The notes beneath the pieces were generated by a model that saw only the letters and a program-made list of their open reading frames with translations, searched no databases and was not told the DNA's origin. 61,254 nt of DNA, taken from the IMG/VR virus record IMGVR_UViG_3300025287_000001, one strand, 5' to 3'. Made by a program: the position numbers and the translations under genes. Below are positions 3,661 through 51,443 of the stretch, piece by piece (the first letter of the stretch is position 1; each line of letters begins with the position of its first letter). Source of the stretch: an uncultured virus (IMG/VR IMGVR_UViG_3300025287_000001) (taxonomy: Duplodnaviria; Heunggongvirae; Uroviricota; Caudoviricetes).

Positions 3661-3978
3661 TTATATCCTAAAAAGCCCAAAATCACTAATTTCCTGAAGG
3701 AACCCATGATACGAAATTAGCCTTTCCCTCATAAACATAGAACCGTGAGTTCTGCTGCTTATTATTTCATAGTTTTCTCTAGGGGTGTAATCATGCGTGA
3801 CTGTAGGATTCCCATCTTTACCAACACTTATATTGATAGAGATGGAAACGTTAGTAACTTTCTTTGTGGTTACGCCGAAGATAGAGGCATGTATCGAGCT
3901 ATATTTCCCATATTTTTCACGCTCAAACTCCATATCTTCTCTTAGAAGTCTGCACATATATGTAATATTATGTATCAC
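3661..3978 (-). CDS. Hypothetical protein
   Basis: Tiles with its neighbours (4-nt overlap with the upstream gene). Confidence 0.55.
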   Translation of the reverse strand: MIHNITYMCRLLREDMEFEREKYGKYSSIHASIFGVTTKKVTNVSISINISVGKDGNPTVTHDYTPRENYEIISSRTHGSMFMRERLISYHGFLQEISDFGLFRI

Positions 3979-28770: not shown

Positions 28771-28800
28771 GAAAAAAGGAGCCACTTTCATGGCTCCTTG
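28771..28800 (-). terminator. Rho-independent terminator
   Basis: Minus strand AAGGAGCCA-TGAAAG-TGGCTCCTT followed by TTTTC. Confidence 0.75.
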
Positions 28801-41892: not shown

Positions 41893-42132
41893 TTAGCGAT
41901 TTCTCTTGCTCTCCTTACGCCTTCGTGCTTCGGCTTTCTTTCTCTTGTATCTCTTCGCAAGAGACTTCTTTCTGTGCCTTCTAGTCATTGAAGACTTTTC
42001 AGACAACTCCCTTACTAGATTCTCATCGTAATTAGGCCCATGATTCTTACATTTTGTAATAAATCTGGAGACCAGCTTCGCGCTTGACTCGCCTCTTCGC
42101 AAATCTACCTTTACGTTATATGGTTTACTCAT
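41893..42132 (-). CDS. rpsU: Phage-encoded ribosomal protein bS21 (divergent)
   Basis: 79 aa and highly basic. VKVDLRRGESSAKLVSRFITKCKNHG...LVREL...RHRKKSLAKRYKRKKA parallels V.V..NE....ALRRFK..C...G...E.R....YEKPS..RK. Confidence 0.7.
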   Translation of the reverse strand: MSKPYNVKVDLRRGESSAKLVSRFITKCKNHGPNYDENLVRELSEKSSMTRRHRKKSLAKRYKRKKAEARRRKESKRNR

Positions 42133-42548
42133 TTCAGCTTCTTCCAAGTATCTTTGAACATTTCTTGCATTGCTGTGACTGCTTTAGTATTCCTATCATC
42201 ATATGAAAAGTTTGCATCATTTGTGCTAGCAGTCCTAGTCTTCGGTTTATTAGTTTTAGGCTTTACGTGCCCCGGCATAGAGATAGCCATTTCGTTGCTC
42301 TGACTACGAGCCTCTCTTCTATATTGCTCTAACATCTTCTTTCCTATATCAGAACTAGAAGAAGATCCCCTGTTTTGGTTTGAAAGCTGCTCTTTCAGCA
42401 TCTTGTTTTCTCTAATAAGGTCTTCAACTTCTTTATCTGTATAAGATGAAGACTCCATCAAGGAACTAACGCCGATTTTGACTAACTCTTCTTTCACCAT
42501 CTCCTCTACCAGAGGCCTAAGTGCTTTTTGTATATCAGACTTCTTCAT
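42129..42548 (-). CDS. Hypothetical head-module protein
   Basis: MKKSDIQKALRPLVEEMVKEEL N-terminus and WKKL C-terminus. Confidence 0.65.
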   Translation of the reverse strand: MKKSDIQKALRPLVEEMVKEELVKIGVSSLMESSSYTDKEVEDLIRENKMLKEQLSNQNRGSSSSSDIGKKMLEQYRREARSQSNEMAISMPGHVKPKTNKPKTRTASTNDANFSYDDRNTKAVTAMQEMFKDTWKKLK

Positions 42549-42915
42549 TGCTCTCTCTTATGAGTTCTTTGTATTCAATCTTATCTACAAGCTTAAAACA
42601 ATACTCCAGAGATTCCTCCAGATATTTTTGCTCCAAATCAAGAAATCTATTTCTTCTGTAGTACAGATATTTTCCTACAGACTGCCTCAGCATGCTTGAC
42701 TTAATCTGGTTCAGGTGAGGCTTAATAGATTCTTCTAGCTTGTAATCATAATGATTCTTGGACTCGCTTAAGATGTTATCGTACTGTTTTACTAAGATGT
42801 TAGTAAATTCCAAGATAGGAGTAACACTCCATTTCGAGTCCGGTATATGAGACTCCATTAGCGTATTCATTACAGAATACTTTGCTACAAATTTTTCTAT
42901 TTTATCTCTCATCAT
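42535..42915 (-). CDS. Hypothetical head-module protein
   Basis: Tiles with its neighbours; contains several L-x-E motifs. Confidence 0.6.
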   Translation of the reverse strand: MMRDKIEKFVAKYSVMNTLMESHIPDSKWSVTPILEFTNILVKQYDNILSESKNHYDYKLEESIKPHLNQIKSSMLRQSVGKYLYYRRNRFLDLEQKYLEESLEYCFKLVDKIEYKELIRESNEEV

Positions 42916-43517
42916 ACACCTAAAATGTTGTTCATCTTCCTGTAGAGAATGTCTTCTTTCGAGAATATCTTGTTCATATCTACACTCTCAGAAAGCATAA
43001 AAGCGCCAGTTGTAGAAGGATCAGCTACGACATCAAAACATATAAGTTGATAATCACTCTCTACCATCGTAGAGCCGTTCCTTTTTGATGTCGAACCAAG
43101 GCCCCTGCTGGAGATTCCTACTGTTACTCCATCCTCCACTAAAGAGCTTAATATTTCACCCTTTGGAGTGCTCAATATCTGTATCTTACCCTTCATATCA
43201 TCACCCTCCCACCACATATCTTTCACGATATGCGATGCATTTTTGAGTGATACTTCATAGCTCTCAGGGTGATCCATCTCTCCAAGGGCTCTGTTTTCTT
43301 TTACAAGCTTCAGATAGTTCTGCATCTCTTTCTCAAGGATGCTCCTAGGGTAAATTCTATTGTTTCTGTTAGGCGCGTCTGCTCTTTGCATTGTACCTAC
43401 TAGAAATTTTACCTTACCCTCCTTGTGAAGTCGAACCTCTGCTTCGTTAAGATGCTTTATAACATCTCCAGAAGGTTTTAGTTCATAAAACTCTCTTAAA
43501 AGTTTGATCTCTGACAT
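42912..43517 (-). CDS. Prohead core protease (T4 gp21-like)
   Basis: N.NNRIYP, ALGEMDHP, SH, TPKG.I, GISSRGLGS and FDVVADPST..A. ATG at 43517 with GGAG. Confidence 0.95.
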   Translation of the reverse strand: MSEIKLLREFYELKPSGDVIKHLNEAEVRLHKEGKVKFLVGTMQRADAPNRNNRIYPRSILEKEMQNYLKLVKENRALGEMDHPESYEVSLKNASHIVKDMWWEGDDMKGKIQILSTPKGEILSSLVEDGVTVGISSRGLGSTSKRNGSTMVESDYQLICFDVVADPSTTGAFMLSESVDMNKIFSKEDILYRKMNNILGV

Positions 43518-43529
43518 AATATAACTCCG

Positions 43530-43548
43530 GCTCGGGCGCAACCCGAGC
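43530..43548 (-). other. GC-rich RNA hairpin upstream of the protease RBS
   Basis: GCTCGGG-TTGCG-CCCGAGC, a perfect 7-bp stem with no U-tract. Confidence 0.6.
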
Positions 43549-43551
43549 GAT

Positions 43552-43602
43552 CTAGCAGCCTTTTCTGCACCTTCTAACTGGTTGCAACATCCATCTTTTC
43601 AT
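43552..43602 (-). CDS. Candidate 16-aa micropeptide MKRWMLQPVRRCRKGC
   Basis: The ATG overlaps the upstream TGA (ATGA) and is preceded by AAGGAG. Ends at TAG. Confidence 0.5.
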   Translation of the reverse strand: MKRWMLQPVRRCRKGC

Positions 43603-43901
43603 TTCTTGTCTCCTTTTGAAATTTGTATTCCATCATCGTTCACTACGCAACTTAGCAAATACGAGCTAAGTGATGTTATACTACCATAGCAAACAATTGT
43701 AAATATATTTATTCCTATATCCCAAAAGTTATATAGATTAGCCAAAATAAACATCGAAAGGCCAACCCAGAATCCGACGCACATAGAGCAATGAAAAAAA
43801 TGATGTTTAGGACGTATTTTAGAAAATAATGCTGAATAGCACAAGATAAAAGTAACACCTGATGATCCCAGGATAAATGTTATTAGTTTAAAAATATCCA
43901 T
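43599..43901 (-). CDS. DUF1360-like membrane protein with CxxC
   Basis: Three TM segments and FFHCSMCVGFWVG. Start MDIFKL. Confidence 0.7.
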   Translation of the reverse strand: MDIFKLITFILGSSGVTFILCYSALFSKIRPKHHFFHCSMCVGFWVGLSMFILANLYNFWDIGINIFTIVCYGSITSLSSYLLSCVVNDDGIQISKGDKK

Positions 43902-44409: not shown

Positions 44410-45203
44410 TTCATCTCCTTGATCAGGTCATACCCAGACATCAAAGTGATGAATGTCTCTTCGTTTATCTCCTCTGAAGGGAGGTTATCTATCTTCTCGA
44501 TAACCTTCTCAAGGGTACTCCTCATCTCCGGGTCTTTTGAAATCTCTTCAACATCAAAGCTTTCACTAAGAGTCTTGGATATAAATCTTGAGTGCTCTCT
44601 TACAAAATATCTTTGCTGACTCTCTTGATCCAAGGAAGAAACATAATGCTTAATAACTTCTTTCTGTTCGTCACTCAACGCCTTGCCGTATTTTTCATTG
44701 TATTTGTCTACAAATATCTTATATGAAATCTCATCTACATGCTCTACGAGATCTTCCTTGTTGTTATTAGCAACATACTGAACAATACTCTCTCGAAGGG
44801 CTTCTTTTTCTCCGGGCTTGTAGTTTGACTCGAAGTAGTTATGCAAGTTTGCAAGTATTCTGTAATCCTTTACGAAGCTATTAAAAACATCAGGATCTTT
44901 ATTGCTTATCTTGGATAAAAATGTAGTCTGCTCATTAAACATCTTCCTCTTATCTAGAGAATTGTAAATCTCTCTGCACTCCTCTAGAAAAGCCCTGGTT
45001 TCTTCTTCGCTGTCCGACTTGAAATCGAGGAAGTAATTGTAGACTTTCAGAAATTTATACGATTCGCTACTAGGGTTGAAGTGCTCCTTGAGAATCTTGG
45101 TTAACTCTCTCTTTGTCGAGTCATCCCTGTCGTCACCAGAACATGCCATACATACACTTTTCATTATGAAGGCAGGGTTTCTTTTCTTGTTGTACTTCTT
45201 CAT
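44406..45203 (-). CDS. Hypothetical head-module protein
   Basis: K.NKKRN.AF N-terminus and F..KYNEKY...LS.EQK; directly follows the portal. Confidence 0.7.
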   Translation of the reverse strand: MKKYNKKRNPAFIMKSVCMACSGDDRDDSTKRELTKILKEHFNPSSESYKFLKVYNYFLDFKSDSEEETRAFLEECREIYNSLDKRKMFNEQTTFLSKISNKDPDVFNSFVKDYRILANLHNYFESNYKPGEKEALRESIVQYVANNNKEDLVEHVDEISYKIFVDKYNEKYGKALSDEQKEVIKHYVSSLDQESQQRYFVREHSRFISKTLSESFDVEEISKDPEMRSTLEKVIEKIDNLPSEEINEETFITLMSGYDLIKEMK

Positions 45204-47038
45204 TCCTCTAGCTTCTCCTTCATCTTCTTGAGTGATTCTATTTCCTCAAAAATACCGTTTGAAATGTTATCCATACCAAAATCAAACGTTACCCCGCCTG
45301 CCTTGCCCTTATACGACCTGTTTCTCGCGCCCATGTTCCTCTTATCACCACCTCTGAATCTAGCAGGCCGATATAGTTTTCCTTTAGATTTCTCTGTAGT
45401 CGTAAACTGCTTCGATCTTCGACCAGGGGCGGTAAGGAGTATGTCCTCTTCTTCAGATCCTCCCTCAGAGTCCATATCGGGCTCAGGACCGCCCTCAAGC
45501 TCCGCCTCAAGCTCGTCTTCGGGTATTTCGTCCATGGCTCCCAGTTCGCTCCCGTCGCCTTCCATGGTGCCGTCTGTGGCCGCTGCTTCTAGCTGTGCGT
45601 CTATCTTGGCATCTCTTATCCTCTGCCTCTCTTCTCTGATAATCTCCTCAGAAGACATCTTGAAGATGTTCGTATAGGCCCAGTGCCTAGAGAACAACGT
45701 CTCCGAAGCGTTGGATGCAGCATCTATCTTCGTTCTCATGTATTCTAAATCTTGAAGTTCTGAGATTCTGGATGGGTTGGCGAGACTTAGCTTGAAGTTA
45801 ATAAGGTCTTTGCCTCTAAATCCTAACGTGTATAAATGAATACGCCCAATCTTCTCCAGTTCTGTGATAATTGATTTTTGTATTCTCTGAATCGTTCTTG
45901 CAAACCTGATATCTTTTTGGACAAGAGCGCCTTTTTCATCATTCCCGCCTTCATCAGTAGGCAACAAGTAAGACTGTGGGATCTTTAGAGACGCCACAAG
46001 CTTGTTTCTCATATACTGAACATCCTCAATATCACTTGTGTTTTGCCCTCCTGATAGTGTCTCAATTCGCGTGCCTGATTTTGAGCCCCTAACCGGGATA
46101 ATGAAATCATCTTCTGCTGCGAATGGATTATAGCGAAGATCAACTTGATCTGTATCTTGATTAATGATCTCGTTTCTCTTCATCTCATTCTTTATCTTCT
46201 CCATCTGCTGATCAACAGCCTCTTCGGGGATACCAACAACATCAACGTAGAAGACTCTTCTCTCTGGAGAGCGGACAACTCGGTAAGTCATCATCGCGTC
46301 TTCCACGAGAATAAGCTGCCTCCATGTTCTTCTGGCTCCATCCAAGACAGATGTTCCATATGGGGCATACTTGCTATTCCCGAGGATTCTAAAGTGAGCT
46401 ATCTGCCAACTCTCGAAGGTCAAGCCTCCTCTGTTCCACTGGAATTGAATATAATTCGTATTATCTTCGTCCTCTCCCTCAAGCCTTTCGACCTCTTCGC
46501 AAGGAAGCCCGATAACTTTTGTAACCCCATACTTGTCATCTATATCGAGGTATAGGAAAAAGTCCCCTTTTGCACAAGTAGACCTCACCCAGCTATACAA
46601 ATTATGATTAACGCCAAGTACATCATAGTACAAGGCGTTAAGTGTGTGGGTTATTTGCTCGTTTGGGCTATCAATCTCTAGCATCTTCTGTAGAGTATTA
46701 TGAGATGTAATTTCGTCTGCATAAATATCAAGAGCAGTTGAGCACTCGACCGTAAACTCCATTTGATCGAAATCAATATATCTATCCAGTCTGCTTTGGT
46801 TAAGCATATAATCTGAATAAAGTGCGTCAAATGGAGACTTCTGCCCTCTTTTATAAGGTTGCCCTGTAGCTGACTTGAAATCAGGGGCAAACTTATCGAC
46901 ATCCTGAGGATTTACAAACTTGGTCGGCCTTTGTGCTTGGTAGTTGTTTATAGGGCCAGAAAAAAGCCTAGTTAGCTTCCTATAGAGCGGAGAATTTTCA
47001 TTCCTCAGGTTAACATTTTGTCGTCTTCTTCTACTCAT
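45200..47038 (-). CDS. Portal protein (T4 gp20-like)
   Basis: ALDIYADE, PYG.SVL, EDAM..YRV.R.PERRVFY.DV, EDDF.IP.RG and DIRFARTI.RIQ. Confidence 0.95.
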   Translation of the reverse strand: MSRRRRQNVNLRNENSPLYRKLTRLFSGPINNYQAQRPTKFVNPQDVDKFAPDFKSATGQPYKRGQKSPFDALYSDYMLNQSRLDRYIDFDQMEFTVECSTALDIYADEITSHNTLQKMLEIDSPNEQITHTLNALYYDVLGVNHNLYSWVRSTCAKGDFFLYLDIDDKYGVTKVIGLPCEEVERLEGEDEDNTNYIQFQWNRGGLTFESWQIAHFRILGNSKYAPYGTSVLDGARRTWRQLILVEDAMMTYRVVRSPERRVFYVDVVGIPEEAVDQQMEKIKNEMKRNEIINQDTDQVDLRYNPFAAEDDFIIPVRGSKSGTRIETLSGGQNTSDIEDVQYMRNKLVASLKIPQSYLLPTDEGGNDEKGALVQKDIRFARTIQRIQKSIITELEKIGRIHLYTLGFRGKDLINFKLSLANPSRISELQDLEYMRTKIDAASNASETLFSRHWAYTNIFKMSSEEIIREERQRIRDAKIDAQLEAAATDGTMEGDGSELGAMDEIPEDELEAELEGGPEPDMDSEGGSEEEDILLTAPGRRSKQFTTTEKSKGKLYRPARFRGGDKRNMGARNRSYKGKAGGVTFDFGMDNISNGIFEEIESLKKMKEKLEE

Positions 47039-49109: not shown

Positions 49110-51443
49110 TTATATCTCCTGCCTTATCGTTGGTTGTTCAACTTCCTCTGGTTCTTCCTGGGAGTTGGCTTGTAGCTCGTTTATGATATCTACAATTTGG
49201 TTGTCTGTTATCCTCTCGAACTCGTCAGGGTCATAGTTTTCGATCTCCATAAACTCTAAAACTCTTTCGAGTACCATATCCTCTATATCATTTCTTAGGG
49301 ATGGATTATCGAGATTTCCGAATATTCCCTGAGCAGCCCCAGAATCAAGCTTCATAGCTTTAACTAGTAAGGAGGATATCCTTTCTTTAATCTTTGAAGT
49401 CTTGAACTTATCCCTGAGGCCCACAAGGGCCTCAGTTCGTGCTGCGTCTTCTCCTCCGGCAGCCAGTTCGGCAGTTGCGTTGAAGGCCTTCAGCGCGTCT
49501 ACTCTAGGCGTCTTTGATTGTTCTTGCGGCTCTATAGACTGCAAAATTTCAGACACTGATTTATCCGAGATATAGACCCTATTCTCTTCTTCTTCTTTCG
49601 GAGCAGCCGCTATCTTTTCTGATATCTGCGACGAAAGATCCTCTTTGACGCCTTCATCTTCCAGTATCTTCTTTAATGCAGAAGCAGGCGCATTTGCTGC
49701 GCTACCAATCCTAAAGGGTACTGCGTACTTATATAACTGTAGTATGTAAGAAAATCCGCAATCATCCCCTCCATAATCCATAATCCTTCTATCTATCTGA
49801 CTAGGGGAATACATGAATGGACTATCCGACATTGACATTGCCGACCTAAGGTTCGCAATGATAGACCTTATCTCGAAATATGGAAGATTTGTGTTATTTC
49901 TATCTTCCGAGTAGAGATAAAGTATCTCTCTCAGGTAAATTCTGTTAATTCTTTTAGCATATGAAATTGCCTTCTGATATAACCTAGGGTTTTCATCCGC
50001 AATTGACATCAAGCTCTGAAAATCTTCTATGCTTCGTACATCATCATATCTTTCATCATTAACTATCTCAAGAACCTGAGAGATTGCCTGAACTCTTTGA
50101 TCATTCAGAGACACCGGGAGGACATCTTCCGAAGACTGCTCTTCCTGCTCTCGAAGCGGGCTTGTTATGTTCGCTCCGTTAACTCCTGTCTTCTTTGAGA
50201 TAATGGTAGTTATCTTATTATAATCACAAACAGAACTACCATTATCAATCGCAGATAATCTTTGGGCGTTTCTTCTAGGGTTTTCATCATCAGGCTCGGG
50301 AGCCATAGGGAGACCTATGCCATCAGACCTTTCCATGGCTTCCGGGGGTACTGCCCCCATTGTCTTGCCGCCATCCTCCCCGGAAGCCATACCTACAGGT
50401 GCAAATCCTACCTTACTCTTGCTCATGGTCTTCTTTGAACCTTTAGGTTTAAAGCCTCCGGTAAAAATATCTTCTCTGTAGATGTCTATTGGTTGTTCTT
50501 TGGGGTCAATTCCCTGCTTTATAGCCTCTACTGCTTGCTTGAAAGAATCAGCAACCTCATCACCATCATACTCTCTGATTCTAGTTTCTATTTTATCAAA
50601 GATATTTTGAATGATGATATTCTTTCTTTCGAGGTCCTTTACGTTCTTCTCCAAGAATGAAGACAACTTTTCGAACTGCTCCTTAAATCCAGGCCTATCT
50701 GTGAAATAAGAAGAAGCAATTTTCTCTCCTATCTTATCGCCTATAAAAGCTGCTCCATATTCGAGTATATCGCTCTTCTTGGACTTCAAGGCAGCAATCA
50801 TCTCTACCTTATTGCCCCTTAGCGAATCGTCCATACTTCTGACCAACTCCATCATTCTTCCGTTGATGTCGTCCCTAAAGGATTCGCTGGCTGAATAGAG
50901 ATCTTCTACTGTAAGGTTCTGAGATTTATCCATCGAGGCGAGCAAGTTTCTCGCGTACTTTACCACTATTCTTAGCATAGCAGCAGTAGGCGTAGCGGGA
51001 TTACGCTCTCTCTCTAGCTCCTCATTAAGGCTTATAGATACACATTCTGCCAGTGCCTCTATATCCTCAGCAGACATAGCCTTGTCTTTAATTCTCTTCA
51101 GGAACAAGACTCTTTTTGTTATCTTATCCTGATCAGGGTTCTCCATCCTAGAAAGCCTATCAATATCTTTCTTCGCCCTCTCTATCTTGTCCTCAAACTT
51201 GGCGCGAAGCTCAGAAGCCCTTCTCCTCAGTTCTTTCTTCTGTTCATAAGACAACTCTTCATCAGTAAGAGACTCTAGAGAAGCGAGAGTTATATCATCA
51301 TCTTCAAAATTAACACTGTTAAGGCCCAGAGTCTCATCTTCAGACTCTTCCATGTGCTTTAGTGCTTTTCCGATAGAGTTGTAGATCTTATCATCGTAAT
51401 CTATATCAGAATTTCTAGGATATTTTTCATCTATATCATTCAT
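49110..51443 (-). CDS. Large hypothetical protein (possible internal head protein)
   Basis: 777 aa, acidic and helical, with SLNEE and PLREQEE motifs. Confidence 0.6.
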   Translation of the reverse strand: MNDIDEKYPRNSDIDYDDKIYNSIGKALKHMEESEDETLGLNSVNFEDDDITLASLESLTDEELSYEQKKELRRRASELRAKFEDKIERAKKDIDRLSRMENPDQDKITKRVLFLKRIKDKAMSAEDIEALAECVSISLNEELERERNPATPTAAMLRIVVKYARNLLASMDKSQNLTVEDLYSASESFRDDINGRMMELVRSMDDSLRGNKVEMIAALKSKKSDILEYGAAFIGDKIGEKIASSYFTDRPGFKEQFEKLSSFLEKNVKDLERKNIIIQNIFDKIETRIREYDGDEVADSFKQAVEAIKQGIDPKEQPIDIYREDIFTGGFKPKGSKKTMSKSKVGFAPVGMASGEDGGKTMGAVPPEAMERSDGIGLPMAPEPDDENPRRNAQRLSAIDNGSSVCDYNKITTIISKKTGVNGANITSPLREQEEQSSEDVLPVSLNDQRVQAISQVLEIVNDERYDDVRSIEDFQSLMSIADENPRLYQKAISYAKRINRIYLREILYLYSEDRNNTNLPYFEIRSIIANLRSAMSMSDSPFMYSPSQIDRRIMDYGGDDCGFSYILQLYKYAVPFRIGSAANAPASALKKILEDEGVKEDLSSQISEKIAAAPKEEEENRVYISDKSVSEILQSIEPQEQSKTPRVDALKAFNATAELAAGGEDAARTEALVGLRDKFKTSKIKERISSLLVKAMKLDSGAAQGIFGNLDNPSLRNDIEDMVLERVLEFMEIENYDPDEFERITDNQIVDIINELQANSQEEPEEVEQPTIRQEI

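Follow-up and report, generated by a model that had tools for sequence, protein, structure and literature searches.

In the head gene module of an uncultured virus of the Caudoviricetes (IMG/VR record IMGVR_UViG_3300025287_000001; the window, in what follows, is this whole stretch of 61,254 nucleotides (nt)), three small elements follow each other directly: a gene for a membrane protein with a CxxC motif, a micro-gene of 16 codons whose product carries two Cys residues, and an RNA stem-loop. The explanation that we favour, with roughly even confidence, takes them as one cassette in which the micropeptide is the partner, or the detached tail, of the membrane protein. A partner role is favoured because natural fusions of membrane protein and peptide exist, because the adjacency of the two genes is near-obligate, and because the loss of one Cys at one place in the peptide is compensated at another.

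All of these elements had been pointed out in an original prediction made from the letters of the window alone. It described a 16-codon open reading frame (ORF) with a ribosome-binding site, coupled to the membrane gene by the overlap of its ATG with the membrane-gene TGA (ATGA); a perfect hairpin of seven base pairs (bp), which begins 3 nt after the TAG of the micro-ORF and abuts the GGAG of the prohead protease gene; and a path from the membrane-gene TGA to the protease that is in frame and has no further stop. Each is present in the window (table 1), with 1 nt (C) between the hairpin and the GGAG. Chance could account for the ORF, the hairpin or the frame path taken alone, and only a comparison with relatives can tell which of them is significant.

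The micro-ORF evolves as a protein-coding gene

Relatives were collected from different seeds. The protease as query gave 14 relatives of 43-54% identity. In a scan seeded with the alignment of the membrane protein, 556 of 600 candidate stretches were confirmed and 80 were kept for counts. A reverse scan, seeded only by a degenerate DNA pattern for the peptide, gave at least 120 stretches, where a rough estimate of the information content of the pattern leaves only few hits to chance. The micro-ORF of the window is the minimal form of the resulting family, which spans roughly 16-56 amino acids (aa) and has the core [KR]-W-x-L-[QR]-P-V-R-R-C-C-[KR]-G-S.

In 40 unique cores of 14 codons the entropy summed at codon positions 1, 2 and 3 is 8.62, 8.82 and 18.45, that is, third positions are about twice as variable as the other two, and the invariant Pro, Val and Gly each use all four codons. 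Pairwise synonymous and non-synonymous differences stand at 3877:3263 in the frame of the peptide, whereas the two alternative frames give 566:6364 and 799:6094. The cores were chosen by a regular expression that requires Pro, Cys and Gly, not synonymous variation, and divergent versions of the micro-ORF found later share the same layout. The codon-level conservation that the original prediction had named as a check is thus found, as an excess of third-position change and as a synonymous excess in this frame only, and the comparison of relatives shows a micro-ORF that evolves as a protein-coding gene. Among relatives, 84 rows hold the micro-ORF, and in 73 of these a Shine-Dalgarno (SD)-like motif with a score of at least 4 precedes the start chosen by script.

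Two Cys residues are kept in nearly all versions of the peptide. Among 132 unique cores from loci and databases, 106 have the pattern CC..G- and 20 the pattern C-..GC; six have a single Cys and none has both patterns. The core of the window belongs to the second class, C-(not C)-x-G-C. Since the second Cys is kept at either of two nearby places, metal binding or a disulfide is favoured, as far as sequences that are related, and hence not independent, can indicate.

The original prediction held that standard gene callers would overlook an ORF of this size, and for the most part they do. A profile built from 36 peptides was run on 5.8 billion and on 1.84 billion proteins, and it matched 68 clusters of 29-79 aa in the former and 77 representatives at E <= 0.001 in the latter. 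The database versions are all at least 29 aa long and carry no Pfam domain, and the only name seen for them is 'hypothetical protein'; some are located on contigs of 187-210 kb. No paper containing the peptide motif QPVRRCC was found, the ESM Atlas gave no usable neighbour for a 34-aa form of the peptide, and a profile search of the PDB with the peptide returned only matches of 10 residues in the variable N-terminal part (E 0.04-1.8), which are read as chance.

Another possibility, a programmed shift of ribosomes out of the frame of the membrane gene into that of the peptide, was rejected for three reasons: the micro-ORF comes with an SD and an ATG of its own, its distance from the membrane stop varies between -113 and +82 nt, and the other two frames carry no coding signal. 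At the level of RNA, a metatranscriptome contig of 248 nt is identical to positions 43434-43681 and reaches from the 3' end of the membrane gene across micro-ORF and hairpin into the start of the protease gene. It is compatible with a read-through transcript, as a weak hint, DNA carry-over being possible.

The micropeptide as a probable partner of the membrane protein

In alignments of relatives the membrane protein has the invariant pattern R-P...F-x-C-x-x-C-x-x-F. It is matched by phrog_781 (function unknown) in 27 of 40 relatives, with a best E of 4.2e-8. The label 'DUF1360-like' that it had been given holds at most as a remote resemblance: DUF1360 (PF07098) matches 8 of the 40 relatives at E <= 0.01 (best 3.3e-4), and the membrane protein of the window itself stays below the gathering score of this family and has no Pfam match even at E <= 10. 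A profile search of the PDB with the alignment found nothing.

The linkage between this gene and the micro-ORF was seen from each seed. The micro-ORF follows the membrane gene in 77 of 80 membrane-seeded loci; the other three end at a contig edge, and two of these still show the first residues of the micro-ORF. Seven of the 14 protease-seeded relatives have the membrane gene, six of them with the micro-ORF after it, and the seven relatives that lack the membrane gene lack the micro-ORF too. In the opposite direction, the membrane gene is directly upstream in 72 of 76 unique peptide-seeded loci with at least 300 nt of upstream sequence, among the matches listed; in three more a single gene intervenes, and in the last no membrane gene is in view. 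Moreover, the peptide occurs as a C-terminal extension of the membrane protein, joined cleanly in P0099 and P0100, and via a frame change in P0096 and P0128. Conserved adjacency together with fusion in some genomes is the pattern sought for a small protein and its partner. The original prediction had offered three options, namely leader-peptide coupling, a Cys-bearing partner of the CxxC membrane protein, and readthrough into the protease, and adjacency, Cys compensation and fusions make the second the best fit.

An AlphaFold2 (AF2) model of the natural fusion P0100 suggests how such a partner could act. Helices are predicted at residues 2-19, 45-59 and 72-99, with a predicted local distance difference test (pLDDT) score of about 90, and the CxxC is placed where loop 1 meets helix 2. 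Because the number of helices is odd, loop 1 with the CxxC and the C-terminus would be on the same side of the membrane in this model; therefore a C-terminal or a free peptide could reach the CxxC, which is an argument of geometry and not proof. The peptide may thus work in trans as a detachable tail of the three-helix protein, and its two Cys residues, on the side of the CxxC loop, could complete a metal or redox site of four Cys. The stem-loop would mark the 3' end of the two-gene unit, either as a leaky terminator or as a hairpin for RNA stability. From the position of the cassette a role in head assembly may be suggested. A more elaborate version is speculative and rather doubtful: the Cys-pair module would build, at one face of the host membrane, an intermolecular four-Cys metal or redox centre with the CxxC that gives the phage a membrane platform of its own for T4-type prohead initiation or for restraint of the protease, ribosomes on the micro-ORF would set the amount of transcript that continues into protease and scaffold genes, and the pair would have undergone repeated fission and fusion.

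The junction of the two genes differs in the commonest sub-clade (L063, 1198-1536 with 1466-1567, and about 30 similar loci). There the membrane ORF extends 74 nt into the micro-ORF, which it overlaps in a different frame, and ends at a TAG made by the Gly-Ser codons (GG TAG T). This looks like passive overprinting, because the overlapping frame carries no coding signal.

The stem-loop evolves as an RNA structure

Within the window the hairpin does not stand out by energy: the local fold is ordinary (z = -0.27; -21.6 kcal/mol over a context of 70 nt). The window has three distinct perfect hairpins with a stem of 7 bp or more, 5 or more of them GC, vs about 1.1 in shuffles, and the motif of the cassette hairpin occurs once in the 61 kb. 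The two other such hairpins, at 28777-28798 and at 49414-49435 (inside a 777-aa ORF, 49110-51443), differ from it in sequence.

Relatives are more informative. A gapless alignment anchored on the Gly codon was made of 52 of 64 unique segments, leaving out eight with another hairpin geometry (L002, L004, L046, L051, L058, L078, L083 and L093) and four with no hairpin (L022, L027, L060 and L086). Columns 13-19 pair with columns 25-31 in 91.5% of cells, vs 33-62% when the partner is slid. Compensatory changes are present in five of the seven pairs (25 cells), and none of 500 shuffles reaches the score. RNAalifold, run on 22 diverse loci, returned this helix only, with the downstream SD and AUG unpaired. 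The covariation on which the original prediction had staked its hairpin is therefore present, and it shows, at the level of compared sequences, a stem-loop that evolves as an RNA structure. In Rfam there was no match at E <= 1 in five loci, and positions 43300-43800 of the window gave only two sub-threshold chance hits elsewhere than at the hairpin.

The stem-loop belongs to the micro-gene and not to the protease, because eight relatives that lack the cassette, and L007 as well, show no stem of this kind upstream of the protease. The original view of an element specifically in front of the protease does not hold in this respect, nor in another, since other genes follow the cassette in roughly a third of cases. 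The intergenic gap in which the hairpin lies is the only sizeable one between the portal and capsid genes.

As to function, the hairpin has the GC-rich stem-loop of an intrinsic terminator. The U-run is missing: when 9 nt are counted, beginning with the last two stem bases, 2 of them are T in the window. Among 52 relatives, 9 have 5 or more T in this stretch and 10 have a run of at least 4. A scan for the terminator consensus lists the terminator of the capsid gene and not the cassette hairpin. Ribosomes that finish or continue the micro-ORF must unwind the 5' arm of the hairpin, and therefore translation probably affects its formation.

Points against the favoured explanation and its alternatives

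A number of observations weigh against a partner role of the peptide or against the cassette as a fixed unit. Production of the peptide and its contact with the membrane protein are predicted, and counts across relatives are not phylogenetically independent. The linkage has exceptions: L007 has the membrane gene without the micro-ORF, L135 has the peptide with no membrane gene within 900 nt, and a gene is inserted between the two in L023, L133, L163 and L169. Where the pair is split, the micro-ORF remains beside the hairpin and the next head gene. The six cores with a single Cys could not supply the pair, and in the AF2 model of P0100 the peptide tail is unresolved, with a pLDDT of about 50. 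The hairpin is less constant than the peptide: among the matches listed, a strong hairpin is present in 55 of 77 peptide-seeded loci and missing in 22. Since the U-tract is mostly lacking, a role as terminator is not established. Finally, in-frame fusions of the peptide to the downstream gene outnumber those to the membrane protein. Their partners are the protease (P0086-88, P0093 and P0106), proteins that begin MKITK... (about a dozen, e.g. P0069, P0072 and P0103), and a DUF5658 membrane protein, to which the peptide is joined in its C-x-x-G-C form (P0090 and P0116). None of the 84 micro-ORFs of viral loci has a downstream fusion. The peptide tolerates extension at either end. The DUF5658-type protein is a second membrane partner, unrelated to the first and encoded downstream.

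A cis-acting role of the micro-ORF is a real if minor possibility. As a leader, or upstream ORF, its translation, possibly with pausing on the nascent peptide, would control the stem-loop and thus transcription read-through, in the manner of pyrBI/pyrE, or translational coupling. The register of ORF and hairpin agrees with this. Across relatives, 12-14 nt separate the Gly codon, counted from its first base, from the first base that pairs; this is about where a ribosome holding Gly in its P site would have its leading edge. Of 67 unique segments, 38 have an ORF that continues through the hairpin, 19 one whose stop is 0-5 nt upstream of it, and four one that stops at or inside the stem; in the remaining six the hairpin is weak or missing. 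The first two groups make up 57 of the 61 segments in which a hairpin was called, and all three positions of the ORF end have the geometry of a leader-ORF attenuator. Besides the 9-10 of 52 hairpins with a terminator-like T-tract, the hairpins of L002, L051 and L093 resemble terminators and have T-rich tails. In loci without a hairpin the micro-ORF stops few nt before the next ATG (e.g. TGActATG), with Lys-Gly AAAGGA at the position of the SD, and after gene insertion it sometimes stays with the downstream gene (L023, L163 and L169).

Other features fit a leader less well. Simple coupling needs neither a conserved peptide nor a compensated Cys pair, the peptide persists without any hairpin, and the fusions to the membrane protein speak against it. 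The downstream gene varies, being the protease in 36 unique membrane-seeded arrangements and another gene in about 19. Neither the SD nor the AUG that follows is covered by conserved pairing; the RNAalifold result on the 22 loci thus gives neither a masked ribosome-binding site of the protease nor the sequestered start of an arrest-peptide system. Lower downstream expression would also conflict with head stoichiometry, as scaffold and capsid genes lie downstream. In Escherichia coli, the leader ORF of pyrBI runs through the attenuator hairpin and the rph ORF upstream of pyrE ends just before its hairpin, and the likeness is that an ORF ends near, or runs through, a GC hairpin, so that the position of the ribosome decides its formation; unlike there, most relatives have no U-tract, the peptide is conserved, the downstream gene varies and no nucleotide-sensing logic is evident. 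SecM-secA, MifM-yidC2 and VemP, in which a peptide that arrests the ribosome opens a hairpin further downstream, likewise have a conserved peptide upstream of a gene, here with Trp and Pro at a fixed distance from a hairpin, but the present hairpin does not include the downstream SD or AUG, the peptide has no signal or membrane segment by which an arrest could be relieved, and it persists where the hairpin is lost. A leader is compatible with a peptide that acts in trans, hence the two readings are not exclusive, and the cis-acting role could possibly coexist with the partner role.

It is improbable that the peptide binds the hairpin of its own mRNA for autoregulation or antitermination, as N of phage lambda binds boxB. 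The resemblance lies in an Arg-rich peptide with a conserved Trp that is encoded beside a short GC stem, the known system having a hairpin of 5-7 bp with a 5-nt loop. The first and last loop bases (U20 and G24) are more than 90% conserved, even where the stop precedes the hairpin, so that this conservation is not due to coding. On the other side, the peptide is kept in the segments and peptide-seeded loci described above in which the hairpin is weak or missing, the same core is found beside quite different long hairpins (L002, L046, L078 and L083), the window has a single copy of the hairpin motif, and the need for two Cys residues is left unexplained.

Still less probable is a reading frame that is open by chance, with all conservation coming from an RNA or DNA element. 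Short ORFs with an SD are common: if ATG ORFs of 10-40 codons that have an SD-like 4-mer are counted, the window has 31 on its coding strand and 24 on the strand that carries no genes. Against this, the codon-position pattern and the synonymous excess are specific to this frame, Cys compensation acts on the protein level, and the core is conserved although the proteases are only 43-54% identical.

Readthrough of the membrane-gene TGA into a membrane-tethered protease, which the original prediction had listed, is hardly credible. In the window the protease ATG follows the TGA at a distance of 84 nt (28 codons) and in the same frame, with 27 sense codons between. Of 36 unique arrangements in which the protease is the next gene, however, only 14 have agreeing frames (39%, vs 33% by chance) and five, the window included, have a stop-free linker; the most common form ends the membrane frame in two successive TAG codons, and there is no conserved readthrough context. 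The in-frame path looks like chance in this comparison, and the conserved frame and stop-free linker expected of readthrough are not found.

Setting of the cassette in the phage genome

All genes of the window are carried by the minus strand. Along the head module their order is portal, two unnamed genes, membrane gene, micro-ORF, hairpin, protease, six unnamed genes and capsid (table 1). The protease belongs to Pfam Peptidase_S77 (PF03420), which it matches with 1.9e-30 and 106.3 bits (cut-off 27), and it matches phrog_207 (head maturation protease) with 2.2e-51. It is the downstream neighbour of the cassette and is located outside it.

Table 1. Coordinates of the cassette and of the surrounding head genes in the window.
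Feature	Position	Strand	Description	Basis
Membrane-protein gene	43599..43901 (TGA 43601-43599)	-	100-aa three-helix membrane protein, invariant CxxC	ORF and alignments
SD of micro-ORF	43610..43615	-	AAGGAG, 7 nt before ATG, inside 3' end of membrane gene	sequence
Micro-gene	43552..43602 (ATG 43602-43600, TAG 43554-43552)	-	16 codons, MKRWMLQPVRRCRKGC, plus TAG; C-x-x-G-C variant	
RNA stem-loop	43530..43548	-	GCTCGGG / TTGCG / CCCGAGC; 7 GC-rich pairs, 8 with U-G closing pair	
Spacer with protease SD	43518..43529 (GGAG 43528-43525)	-	GGAG, then 7 nt to ATG	sequence
Prohead protease gene	42912..43517	-	T4-type, 201 aa from ATG 43517	Peptidase_S77, phrog_207
Portal gene	45200-47038	-		Pfam Portal_T4, 3.1e-71
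Two unnamed genes	between portal gene and membrane-protein gene	-		gene order
Six unnamed genes	between prohead protease and capsid genes	-		gene order
Capsid gene	39740-37950	-	gp23-type	

The nearest cultured phage is Flavobacterium phage immuto, in which the cassette is missing. Its protease is 52% and its capsid protein 41% identical, and therefore the lineage is uncultured and far from T4; the genome that hosts the cassette is that of an uncultured marine T4-like ('Far-T4') phage. Among cultured phages (INPHARED), the peptide region gave no blastn or tblastn match and the membrane protein no match.

Scans for sigma-70 promoters and terminators gave nothing at the site of the micro-ORF and hairpin. 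The T4 late-promoter motif TATAAATA occurs twice in the window vs 3.4 expected, and not at this site. Directly 3' of the major capsid gene there is a strong canonical intrinsic terminator with a 14-bp stem and a T-tail (37925-37894, minus strand); the host polymerase presumably reads ordinary terminators.

Some of the neighbouring small genes deserve mention. Varied proteins encoded beside the cassette share an N-terminus like MKITKxQLKQIIKEE(L/I), followed by unrelated sequence. Examples are the 139-aa protein of the window (42129-42548, minus strand), which begins MKKSDIQKALRPLVEEMVKEEL, and proteins at L023 1497-2165, L045 1588-2283, L080 1587-2336 and L021 1497-1569, among others. T4-type prohead proteases cut at I/L-x-E sites, and the shared N-terminus looks, from its sequence, like a targeting or pro-peptide with such a site at its end; the proteins may be internal head proteins. 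In the same module an 84-aa ORF (41893-42147, minus strand) has an extremely basic tail (...RRHRKKSLAKRYKRKKAEARRRKESKRNR). A resemblance to ribosomal protein S21 was considered and rejected, with no Pfam match at E <= 10. In L066 (1584-1685), an ORF of 34 codons with an SD follows the hairpin directly; its product, MKKILHKLVNIFNTKHCCCCCGCCSCSNCTGECK, has 12 Cys among its last 18 residues.

Relation to known systems and significance

Small accessory proteins such as AcrZ, KdpF, CydX and MgtS/MgtR sit in bacterial membrane complexes. AcrZ-AcrB, KdpF-KdpABC, CydX-CydAB and MgtS/MgtR resemble the present pair in that a gene of fewer than 50 codons, overlooked by gene callers, stands beside the gene of a membrane partner, and here natural fusions are found in addition. 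The known proteins are single hydrophobic helices, whereas the peptide of the cassette is predicted to be soluble and strongly basic, with two Cys residues. Another likeness is to phage morons, which are additional genes placed among structural genes together with a terminator of their own, and to the membrane-bound prohead initiation that gp40 assists in T4: the cassette is restricted to one sub-clade, lies between head genes, ends in a stem-loop and encodes a membrane protein beside portal, scaffold and protease genes. It differs from morons in that no promoter was identified here.

With at least 120 viral contigs and 68-77 clusters in marine metagenomes, the family consists of unnamed small proteins, of a size that phage annotation systematically misses. 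Codon, protein and RNA evidence agree, so that it can be annotated with confidence. Its hairpin offers a compact natural case for the study of how ribosomes on a very small ORF deal with an RNA structure between two genes. The CxxC membrane protein and the predicted two-Cys peptide provide a concrete, testable pair of candidate partners among the head-assembly genes of a phage lineage that is abundant and uncultured.

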